From the NCBI GenBank assembly GCA_964016885.1, contig OZ024742.1:220720001-220784000 (forward strand): a DNA stretch of 64,000 bases, read 5' to 3'. Position numbers and translations under genes: made by a program. The notes below the pieces were generated by a model that was not told the origin of the DNA, ran no database searches, and was given only the letters and a program-made list of their open reading frames with translations. Source of the stretch: Eledone cirrhosa (lineage: Eukaryota). Positions 25,293 through 29,033 of this stretch are shown one piece after another. Every line of letters begins with the position of its first letter. Positions within the stretch are counted from its first letter, which is position 1.

Positions 25293-28200
25293 ATAAGTTG
25301 AAAAAAATGAAAACGAAATTTCATTTCTCACTCTTAGTATGCCACTTACTTAAATGTAAGTATCTATGTATACGTACATACATATATGTATACAGACGTA
25401 CAGTAGCATGCATATATATATATACATATATATATATATATATATATATATATATATATATATATATATATATATATATATATACATACATACATATACA
25501 CATAAGCATACAGGTACACATACATATATGCACGCATCAGTTTAGCCGGCGTTTAATATAACGCCGGCCGCTTTGTTCGTTTGTTTGTCAACAAAGCGAA
25601 CAGCCTGAATTTATGCCATACGGTGTTAAGGCAACCACGTCACCTTTTTGTTCAACACTGACACAGGAACGATGTACTAGTTTCAAGCTTGTTAGCTATC
25701 ATCAGCACCGTTTACCCATCTGCCAGATAGTTGAACGTTCGAAAGTATATACTTTCCTTATGAAAATTAACGGCTGAGCAGCCTAATTTGCATATTGAGT
25801 GAGTTAAATCGGTCAGGCATACCGAAAACGATAAGTTGAAAAAAATGAAAACGAAATTTCATTTCTCACTCTTAGTATGGCACTTACTTAAATGTAAGTA
25901 TGTATGTATACGTACACACATATATGTATACAGACGTACAGTAGCATGCATATATATATATATATATATATATATATATATATATATATATATATATATA
26001 TATATATATATACATATACATACATACATATACACATATGCATACAGGTACACATACATATATGCACGCATCAGTTTAGCCGGCGTTTATTATAACGCCG
26101 GCCGCTTTGTTCGTTTGTTTGTCAACAAAGCGAACAGCCTGAATTTATGCCATACGGTGTTAAGGCAACCACGTCACCTTTTTGTTCAACACTGACACAG
26201 GAACGATGTACTAGTTTCAAGCTTGTTAGCTATCATCAGCACCGTTTACCCATCTGCCAGATAGTTGAACGTTCGAAAGTATATACTTTCCTTATGAAAA
26301 TTAAGTAAGTGCCATACTAAGAGTGAGAAATGAAATTTCGTTTTCATTTTTTTCAACTTATCGTTTTCGGTATGCCTGACCGATTTAACTCACTCAATAT
26401 GCAAATTAGGCTGCTCAGCCGTTAATTTTCATAAGGAAAGTATATACTTTCGAACGTTCAACTATCTGGCAGATGGGTAAACGGTGCTGATGATAGCTAA
26501 CAAGCTTGAAACTAGTACATCGTTCCTGTGTCAGTGTTGAACAAAAAGGTGACGTGGTTGCCTTAACACCGTATGGCATAAATTCAGGCTGTTCGCTTTG
26601 TTGACAAACAAACGAACAAAGCGGCCGGCGTTATAATAAACGCCGGCTAAACTGATGCGTGCATATATGCATGTGTACCTGTATGCATATGTGTATATGT
26701 ATGTATGTATATGTATATATATATATATGTATATATATATATATATATATATATATATATATATATATATATATATATATATATATATATATATATATAT
26801 ATATATATATATGTATATATATATATGCATGCAACTGTACGTCTGTATACATATATGTATGTACGTATACATACATACTTACATTTAAGAGTGAGAAATG
26901 AAATTTCGTTTTCATTTTTTTCAACTTATCGTTTTCGGTATGCCTGACCGATTTAACTCACTCAATATGCAAATTAGGCTGCTCAGCCGTTAATTTTCAT
27001 AAGGAAAGTATATACTTTCGAACGTTCAACTATCTGGCAGATGGGTAAACGGTGCTGATGATAGCTAACAAGCTTGAAACTAGTACATCGTTCCTGTGTC
27101 AGTGTTGAACAAAAAGGTGACGTGGTTGCCTTAACACCGTATGGCATAAATTCAGGCTGTTCGCTTTGTTGACAAACAAACGAACAAAGCGGCCGGCGTT
27201 ATAATAAACGCCGGCTAAACTGATGCGTGCATATATGTATGTGTACCTGTATGCATATGTGTATATGTATATATATATATATATATATATATATATATAT
27301 ATATATATATATATATATATATATATATATATGTATATATATATATGCATGCTACTGTACGTCTGTATACATATATGTATGTACGTATACATACATACTT
27401 ACATTTAAGTAAGTGCCAAACTAAGAGTGAGAAATGAAATTTCGTTTTCATTTTTTTCAACTTATCGTTATCGGTATGCCTGACCGATTTAACTCACTCA
27501 ATATGCAAATTAGGCTGCTCAGCCGTTAATTTTCATAAGGAAAGTATATACTTTCGAACGTTCAACTATCTGGCAGATGGGTAAACGGTGCTGATATCGT
27601 TCCTGTGTCAGTGTTGAACAAAAAGGTGACGTGGTTGCCTTAACACCGTATGGCATAAATTCAGGCTGTTCGCTTTGTTGACAAACAAACGAACAAAGCG
27701 GCCGGCGTTATTATAAACGCCGGCTAAACTGATGCGTGCATATGTGTGTATGTATGTATGTATATGTATATATATATATATGTATATATATATATATATA
27801 TATATATATATATATATATATATATATATATATATATATATATATATATATATGTATATATATATATGCATGCTACTGTACGTCTGTATACATATATGTA
27901 TGTACGTATACATACATACTTACATTTAAGTAAGTGCCATACTAAGAGTGAGAAATGAAATTTCGTTTTCATTTTTTTCAACTTATCGTTTTCGGTATGC
28001 TTGACCGATTTAACTCACTCAATATGCAGATTAGGCTGCTCAGCCGTTAATTTTCATAAGGAAAGTATATACTTTCGAACGTTCAACTATCTGGCAGATG
28101 GGTAAACGGTGCTGATGATAGCTAACAAGCTTGAAACTAGTACATCGTTCCTGTGTCAGTGTTGAACAAAAAGGTGACGTGGTTGCCTTAACACCGTATG

Positions 28201-29033
28201 GCATAAATTCAGGCTGTTCGCTTTGTTGACAAACAAACGAACAAAGCGGCCGGCGTTATAATAAACGCCGGCTAAACTGATGCGTGCATATATGCATGTG
28301 TACCTGTATGCATATGTGTATATGTATGTATGTATATGTATATATATATATATGTATATATATCATATATATATATATTATATATATATATATATATATA
28401 ATATATATATATATGCATGCTACTGTACGTCTGTATACATATATGTATGTACGTATACATACATACTTACATTTAAGTAAGTGCCATACTAAGAGTGAGA
28501 AATGAAATTTCGTTTTCATTTTTTTCAACTTATCGTTTTCGGTATGCCTGACCGATTTAACTCACTCAATATGCAAATTAGGCTGCTCAGCCGTTAATTT
28601 TCATAAGGAAAGTATATACTTTCGAACGTTCAACTATCTGGCAGATGGGTAAACGGTGCTGATGATAGCTAACAAGCTTGAAACTAGTACATCGTTCCTG
28701 TGTCAGTGTTGAACAAACAGGTGACGTGGTTGCCTTAACACCGTATGGCATAAATTCAGGCTGTTCGCTTTGTTGACAAACAAACGAACAAAGCGGCCGG
28801 CGTTATAATAAACGCCGGCTAGACTGATGCGTGCATATATGTATGTGTACCTGTATGCATATGTGTATATGTATGTATGTATATGTATATATATATATGT
28901 ATATATATATATATATATATATATATATATATATTATATATATATATATATATATATATGTATATATATATATGCATGCTACTGTACGTCTGTATACATA
29001 TATGTATGTACGTATACATACATACTTACATTT
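25293..29033. repeat. ~520-570-bp monomer array (2 minus plus ~5 plus, inversion at ~26303), each monomer with an internal (TA)n and an HHR
   Basis: Near-identical blocks repeat, and monomer length varies mainly with the internal microsatellite. Diverged relatives lie at 47264-48018. Confidence 0.95.
26480..26524 (+). ncRNA. Minimal type I hammerhead (also plus 27048-27092, 28105-28149, 28652-28696; minus 25668-25712, 26202-26246)
   Basis: AACGGTG-CTGATGA-TAGC taacaa GCTT-GAAA-CTAG-TA-CATCGTT, with a GUA triplet. Confidence 0.85.

Follow-up and report, generated by a model that had tools for sequence, protein, structure and literature searches.

The array at positions 25293 to 29034 of the window (here, a 64,000-nucleotide stretch of the Eledone cirrhosa genome, contig OZ024742.1 of assembly GCA_964016885.1) is one insertion of a new and very abundant family of non-LTR retrozymes, a known kind of element. 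The array fits this class, as described in PMC7229834, PMC4209133 and bioRxiv 10.64898/2026.07.22.740005, because it consists of head-to-tail units with type I hammerhead ribozymes (HHR), has no coding capacity, is low in GC and is strongly self-paired. The family is likely copied from circular RNA by the reverse transcriptase-endonuclease of a Penelope-like element (PLE) acting in trans, with its ends at two fixed sites; we estimate the probability of this reading at roughly three in four.

Mobilisation of retrozymes by PLEs has so far been proposed mainly from their co-occurrence and from pLTR similarity. The family described here supplies short insertions by the thousand, the ends of which can be mapped, and thereby a PLE signature on a retrozyme. 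It also adds a testable constraint, namely that each inverted insertion carries one end of each type.

The inverted array

Seven units of about 540 bp each form one two-armed insertion. A preceding inspection of the letters (below, the sequence-only reading) had proposed two minus and about five plus monomers with an inversion at TTAA, and the joint was confirmed at 26301-26304. Arms were mapped on a 389-position profile of the unit from which the TA spacer had been removed. The 3' ends are called site A and site B. The features of the array are as follows.

25150..25292: genomic (TA)n beside the site-A end
25293..29034, both strands: whole two-armed insertion, 2 minus and 5 plus units
25293..26304, minus: minus arm, profile positions 169-389, 1-389 and 1-109; its 3' end is site A with the tail, followed by genomic (TA)n
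25293..25350, minus: the ~57-nt 'tail', which separates site B from site A and is found at this end alone; its inner limit is approximate
25669..25711, minus: type I hammerhead, intact
26203..26245, minus: type I hammerhead, intact
26301..26304: inversion joint, palindrome TTAA common to both arms, read from the sequence
26301..29034, plus: plus arm of 5 units, which ends 3' at site B, without the tail, and is followed by genomic (TA)n
26399..26406, plus: exact octamer, in a predicted stem; also at 26967, 27503 and 28571, and on the minus strand at 25793
26481..26523, plus: type I hammerhead, intact; cleavage predicted after 26517 by the HHR rule
27049..27091, plus: type I hammerhead, intact
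27585..27601, plus: hammerhead remnant with a 27-nt internal deletion
28024-28031, plus: mutated octamer
28106..28148, plus: type I hammerhead, intact, with a weak match to Rfam HH9
28285..28419, plus: internal TA spacer (example), a predicted self-paired hairpin
25407-25532, 25945-26066, 26660-26833, 27228-27351, 27737-27872, 28832-28978: other internal TA spacers
28653..28695, plus: type I hammerhead, intact
29035..29706: genomic (TA)n beside the site-B end

The distance from HHR to HHR within the array is 521-568 bp, the internal TA spacers are 124-147 nt long, and the GC content of the units is 27-35%. Apart from read-throughs of TA runs, no ORF of at least 150 codons was found in 25293-29033, and no RT or GIY-YIG ORF. 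An HHR and an octamer had been ascribed to every monomer, which proved slightly too broad. The HHR is intact in six of the seven units, the unit at 27352-27736 having a 27-nt deletion through it; the octamer is exact in five, mutated in one and missing from the truncated unit.

The hammerhead motif

Counted from one strand of stem I to the other, the intact HHR is 43 nt long, and it is of type I. It consists of a 6-bp stem I, a 4-bp stem II with U-U at its base and a 1-bp stem III that closes a palindromic loop. The conserved core, helices I and II and a short helix III with a palindromic loop, which characterize type I, are all present; the G10.1-C11.1 pair is absent, its place being taken by U-U. 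According to the consulted parts of PMC7229834, U-U also occupies the base of helix II in the axolotl HHR_Amex2, and the palindromic helix III of 1 bp found here resembles that of HHR_Amex1. The only hammerhead model of Rfam to match was Hammerhead_HH9 (18.5 bits, E 0.051), below the gathering score of 52. The Rfam scan of the whole window was dominated by TA-driven miRNA matches under the gathering score.

The window also contains a diverged insertion of an older subfamily.

47248..48020, plus: separate single-armed insertion, ~80% identical, ending at site A into (TA)n
47261-47303, plus: its first HHR, with stem I broken
47709-47751, plus: its second HHR

Core position 7 is changed to C in both of these copies, as had been read before. 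The accompanying suggestion that stem I still pairs despite its substitutions holds in one copy, at 47709-47751, where stem II contains a mismatch, and fails for the copy at 47261-47303, where the 5' strand of stem I is missing at the truncation point.

Size of the family

The exact HHR-core pattern has 23,574 matches genome-wide versus 0 for a reversed control; thus the motif does not occur by chance. The tail pattern, with up to three mismatches, has 46,712 matches (control 0). Hammerheads are very abundant in this genome, with 10 descriptor matches in 200 kb of background sequence. Young units are about 470-570 bp long, and their TA spacer has a median of 96 nt; in older units, of 420-430 bp, the spacer is 44 nt. 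The longest arrays elsewhere in the assembly reach 19 or more units. A satellite-like array at C4 352.45-352.48 Mb (loci L100, L012 and L170) extends over ~24 kb with more than 30 units, and its recurring variant patterns suggest later unequal crossover. Of four runs, X1 is very deep over the unit, X4 and X6 gave 2-3 contigs and X5 none; these runs bear neither on expression nor on other species.

Two fixed 3' ends beside (TA)n

We mapped arms in 102 merged loci, which were picked by similarity to the young unit, by the HHR pattern or by the tail pattern. They provided 185 arm 3' ends, of which three at locus edges were dropped. Among the remaining 182, 161 lie at two fixed sites ~57 nt apart, outside the internal TA tract. 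Site A accounts for 92 ends (profile positions 95-112, mode 108-109) and site B for 69 (40-58, mode 52), including one B call, in L079, that is an overlap artefact. The other 21 ends are elsewhere.

A (TA)4 run occurs within 20 nt past the end in 147 of the 161 A and B ends (91%), as compared with 7.9% of background positions. Exact B-plus-TA junctions number 7,717 genome-wide, with 1 in the control; the genome-wide count was made for these junctions, and the site-A figures rest on the sample of fetched loci. Insertions do target genomic (TA)n, and fixed ends A and B that abut it are the 'tail' signature of Penelope elements.

RNA fold and selection

Compared with shuffled sequences, the predicted fold of the unit has a z-score of -13.65 with the TA spacer and of -3.8 to -8.0 without it. 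A structure of 71 pairs, drawn from single-sequence folds, is 96.8% paired over 38 cores. Eleven of the 71 pairs, in six helices, change on both sides, six of the 11 being in one hairpin; the controls gave a mean of 6.9 for shuffles (2/500) and 4-9 for slid structures. The shuffle ignores relatedness, therefore these numbers count as support and not as a significance test. One more hairpin covaries when it is read by motif. The covariation speaks for selection on how the unit as a whole folds.

The HHR helices (helices 9-11) are 97-100% paired. Covariation in them concerns one stem I pair (U-G 21, G-U 12, A-U 3), with none in stems II and III. Selection on the HHR was judged on a tree of 65 loci against a terminal-branch baseline, in a sample biased towards intact HHRs. 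The 12 HHR core positions have 0 lineage changes, which does not differ significantly from the terminal changes; inside the HHR, lineage changes are found at position 7, in loop II and in one stem I pair, and nowhere else. The octamer has 0 lineage changes over its 8 sites, too few to call. Thus the claim that selection acts on ribozyme structure is borne out for the whole-unit fold (11 of 71 pairs), whereas for the HHR as such the signal is weak.

Circular or linear template

Young arrays are nearly uniform, and their locus-specific variants are common to both arms. In L025, for example, there are 11 cores and one private change, and shared variants were likewise found in L008, L010, L036, L219 and L254. 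Arrays L086 and L251 are dimer-periodic, that is, built of two alternating units that differ at 12-15 sites. In both of them (2/2) one of the units has a broken HHR pair, for which the chance is 0.68-0.75 in each case. Such uniform and dimer-periodic arrays fit rolling-circle copying of a monomeric or dimeric circular RNA. Against this, a systematic comparison of arms was noisy: only in 10 of 43 loci was an arm more similar to its partner than to the nearest other locus, and five loci were ties. Also against it, the long arrays L100, L236 and L255 are heterogeneous.

The template could instead have been a linear multimeric transcript, or two RNAs, with the arrays growing later by unequal crossover and the HHR being mostly a passenger. 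Long heterogeneous arrays such as L100 and the lack of significance of HHR-specific selection agree with this. So do two published observations, as given in the consulted parts of the sources: HHR mutants had no effect on PLE insertion in vitro (PMC11167929), and one of nine Xenopus retrozyme dimers cleaved, local tandem expansion being proposed (bioRxiv 10.64898/2026.07.22.740005). A linear template is nevertheless at odds with the arms of young insertions, both of them multimers that are nearly identical and carry the same private variants, and with the unchanged HHR core and the narrow confinement of changes around it. We consider it unlikely.

One end of each type in two-armed insertions

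Among 69 two-armed inverted insertions with classed ends, 67 have A on one arm and B on the other, none has two A ends and two have two B ends. In both B+B cases a foreign insertion follows B and the tail resumes beyond it. The first sets contributed 61 divergent arm pairs in the 102 loci, 48 of them classed (47 A+B, one B+B, no A+A), with two of the 47 A+B pairs being local duplicates. Pairs in loci picked by the HHR alone were all A+B (18/18; P about 4e-6 under independent choice). In an independent test, 40 new loci picked by a B end gave 25 pairs, of which 20 of the 21 classed were A+B and one was B+B (P about 2e-5). Inverted arms, a one-sided tail and the (TA)n bias are known qualitatively; the strict pairing is the new point. 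Neither such pairing nor a tail in a retrozyme was found in the open-access literature searched.

Either arm can be the longer one, the B arm exceeding the A arm in 36 of the 67 insertions. About 23 of the 67 score as non-nested, with arm lengths being approximate; L141, L149, L237 and L148 are clear cases in which neither arm contains the other. In L149, L237 and L141 the A arm is the tail alone and stops near B. These arrangements argue against the possibility that a single cDNA folds back and is copied as DNA, the endonuclease resolving the second end, so that one of A and B would be a start site and the other a cut site. Such an origin would agree with the near-palindromic centres of 14 of the 67 insertions and with the position of site B in an AT-rich hairpin (helix 1 of the drawn structure), and the consulted part of PMC8557442 ascribes the tail to endonuclease-mediated resolution. 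On the other hand, both sites are RT start sites in vitro, as described in the available portion of PMC11167929. Taken with the non-nested arms, this leaves fold-back copying distinctly improbable.

The internal TA tract

The sequence-only reading had suggested that insertions are targeted through the internal (UA)n, which would anneal to nicked genomic (TA)n and also seed microsatellites; on this view the annealed tract would prime reverse transcription. The 182 sampled 3' ends show the tract to be depleted of junctions rather than a hot spot: four ends fall inside it versus 19-34 expected under uniform breakage. They come from the eight ends of the 'other' class that extend to the last position of the profile; inspected by eye, four of the eight pass through the TA tract and four stop inside. 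One of the four tract ends, in L033, is a later foreign insertion. At L033 1665-2068 another repeat sits inside the TA tract of the unit; hence the tract is a target for other TA-seeking elements. The older subfamily has spread with a 44-nt spacer, and the tract is predicted to be self-paired. For 5' joints, the spacer zone shows an enrichment of about twofold (38 versus 135 stops), a value inflated by over-extension of alignments into the TA flanks; the zone may modestly attract 5' joints, up to twofold, and this effect is not robust. Though every unit has a TA spacer, 5' joints are enriched there and 91% of the A and B ends adjoin (TA)n, priming from the internal tract is rejected and to be regarded as very improbable, since the ends are at A and B outside the tract and element and target share merely a few ambiguous TA bases.

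Seeding of microsatellites by the internal TA turns out to be minor. Pure (TA)n runs occupy 5.9% of the 3.0 Gb assembly, as estimated from 20 spaced 10-kb samples, i.e., ~175 Mb, against at most ~4.5 Mb of retrozyme TA (46,712 x 96 nt). By this arithmetic, retrozyme TA tracts make up less than 3% of the (TA)n in the genome. A search for empty sites gave candidate matches for 13 of 112 blocks, roughly half of them self-matches. The empty sites of L081, L031 and L027 point to a microsatellite present before the insertion, and that of L165 is ambiguous. One L083 copy lies in a non-repeat AT-rich site with no TA added. De novo addition of TA at insertion is possible.

Penelope-type enzymes in the genome

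The assembly has many copies of intact elements that encode a 775-aa protein with RT, GIY-YIG and a Cys-x4-Cys-x2-Cys linker. We read them as putatively Neptune-type from the description of the linker in the consulted part of PMC8557442. One intact RT and GIY-YIG family has its own HHR and two ends ~50 nt apart into (TA)n, a pattern like that of the retrozyme, which supports the PLE reading. Among its two-armed copies, two of three have one end of each type and one is A+A. A second Neptune-type family (L198, L191) has a hammerhead-like motif downstream of the ORF. By eye, the core of this motif looks like the U3-A8 variant described in the available part of PMC4209133.

A partner sharing sequence with the retrozyme was not found: the ends of the two Neptune-type families have no homology to the unit, the survey of HHRs in the fetched loci gave no ORF-linked relative, and the flanks of 68 loci contain PLE ORF fragments but no common upstream sequence or ORF. 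A PDB relative of the 775-aa protein was not found either.

The window itself has PLE remains. On the minus strand of 41585-42803 there is a 5'-truncated Neptune-type PLE that includes GIY-YIG; it has an HHR of its own at 41788, and its tailed end runs into (TA)n. Its many intact copies genome-wide encode 775 aa and have an upstream frame of 476 codons. ORFs at 38984-41190, 32410-33171 and 36504-37629 belong to another PLE group, which we take to be Hydra-clade-like, with C-terminal GIY-YIG-like ends, and there is an HHR-like motif at 41222 on the minus strand.

Proposed mechanism

Copying of a circular RNA by a PLE enzyme could proceed as follows. Multimeric transcripts would self-cleave as HHR dimers (the loop of stem III is palindromic), and the cleaved units would be ligated into highly folded circles. 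A dimer of the PLE protein would nick a genomic (TA)n on both strands. Priming would take place at A from one nick and at B from the other, with just 2-5 nt of UA-type overlap, and each enzyme would roll along the circle for a variable number of turns. The two cDNAs would then join by microhomology, which would produce the inverted joint. The internal TA tract would be a passenger, expanded in the young subfamily.

A more specific version, which we advance tentatively and would not yet bet on, is that each inverted insertion may represent one PLE dimer holding both start sites of one circular RNA, with its subunits each primed from opposite strands of a nicked (TA)n and rolling independently. 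If this is true, the A+B rule and the dimer-periodic arrays record circles as templates, with HHR activity setting the circle size.

The consulted part of PMC11167929 describes a PLE protein that cuts both target strands, is predicted to be a dimer and initiates at two neighbouring internal sites of the RNA, which delimit the tail. In the same in vitro work the start site had no strand difference and HHR cleavage was not needed, which counts against the circle and the coupling of A with B.

Relation to known elements

The comparisons below refer to the consulted parts of the cited papers. Metazoan non-LTR retrozymes (Cervera and de la Pena 2020, PMC7229834; Li et al. 2026, bioRxiv 10.64898/2026.07.22.740005) are also tandem non-coding units with type I HHRs. 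They are likewise low in GC, are predicted to form self-paired circles, reach very high copy numbers and co-occur with PLEs. The family described here differs from them by its units of 420-570 bp, its expanding internal TA tract and its dispersed short two-armed insertions in (TA)n. A mapping of fixed 3' ends or of a tail was not found in the consulted parts of these two sources. A homologous pLTR is given for 24 of 57 families of Xenopus retrozymes, and none was found for the family here in the two Neptune-type families compared.

Poseidon of Anolis (Frangieh et al. 2024, PMC11167929) likewise has two fixed 3' ends, an AT-rich target and an HHR in the repeated unit. In contrast to Poseidon, our family has no ORF, and its tail is ~57 nt rather than 30-40 nt long. 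A is strictly paired with B across arms here, while Poseidon had no strand difference in vitro. Neptune, Naiad and non-autonomous Chlamys elements such as MRC1 (Craig et al. 2021, PMC8557442) share the (TA)n bias, which is tied to the cysteine linker of Neptune, and the inverted 5'-truncated arm. They also share the tail that is often one-ended and the head-to-tail multicopy non-autonomous insertions. Naiads and most Chlamys elements lack a canonical HHR, unlike the family here. The origin of tandem and inverted PLE arms and of the one-sided tail is stated as open in the consulted parts of PMC8557442 and PMC11167929. In the portion of the octopus repeat paper (PMC13282606) that was available, hammerheads are unmentioned.

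Other features of the window

A second tandem HHR family occurs at 8122-9080 of the window. Its 310-bp unit is repeated 3.1 times, with minus-strand HHRs at 8291, 8601 and 8911 and with (TA)n flanks. The same 310-bp family is also inserted at site B of an L008 array and beside L046. Further families of HHR-like motifs are found at 17455, 17571, 44808, 48261, 49335 and 63002 of the window and in the fetched loci.

An imperfect (TA)n tract of 5.2 kb extends from 17769 to 23008. Two frames, of 481 codons (59940-61385) and 295 codons (51646-52533), have no Pfam match at E 0.001 and look transposon-derived. Pol frames with protease, RT and integrase are at 2565-4139, 10061-13217 and 54089-55684; presumably they are from Gypsy-type LTR retrotransposons.
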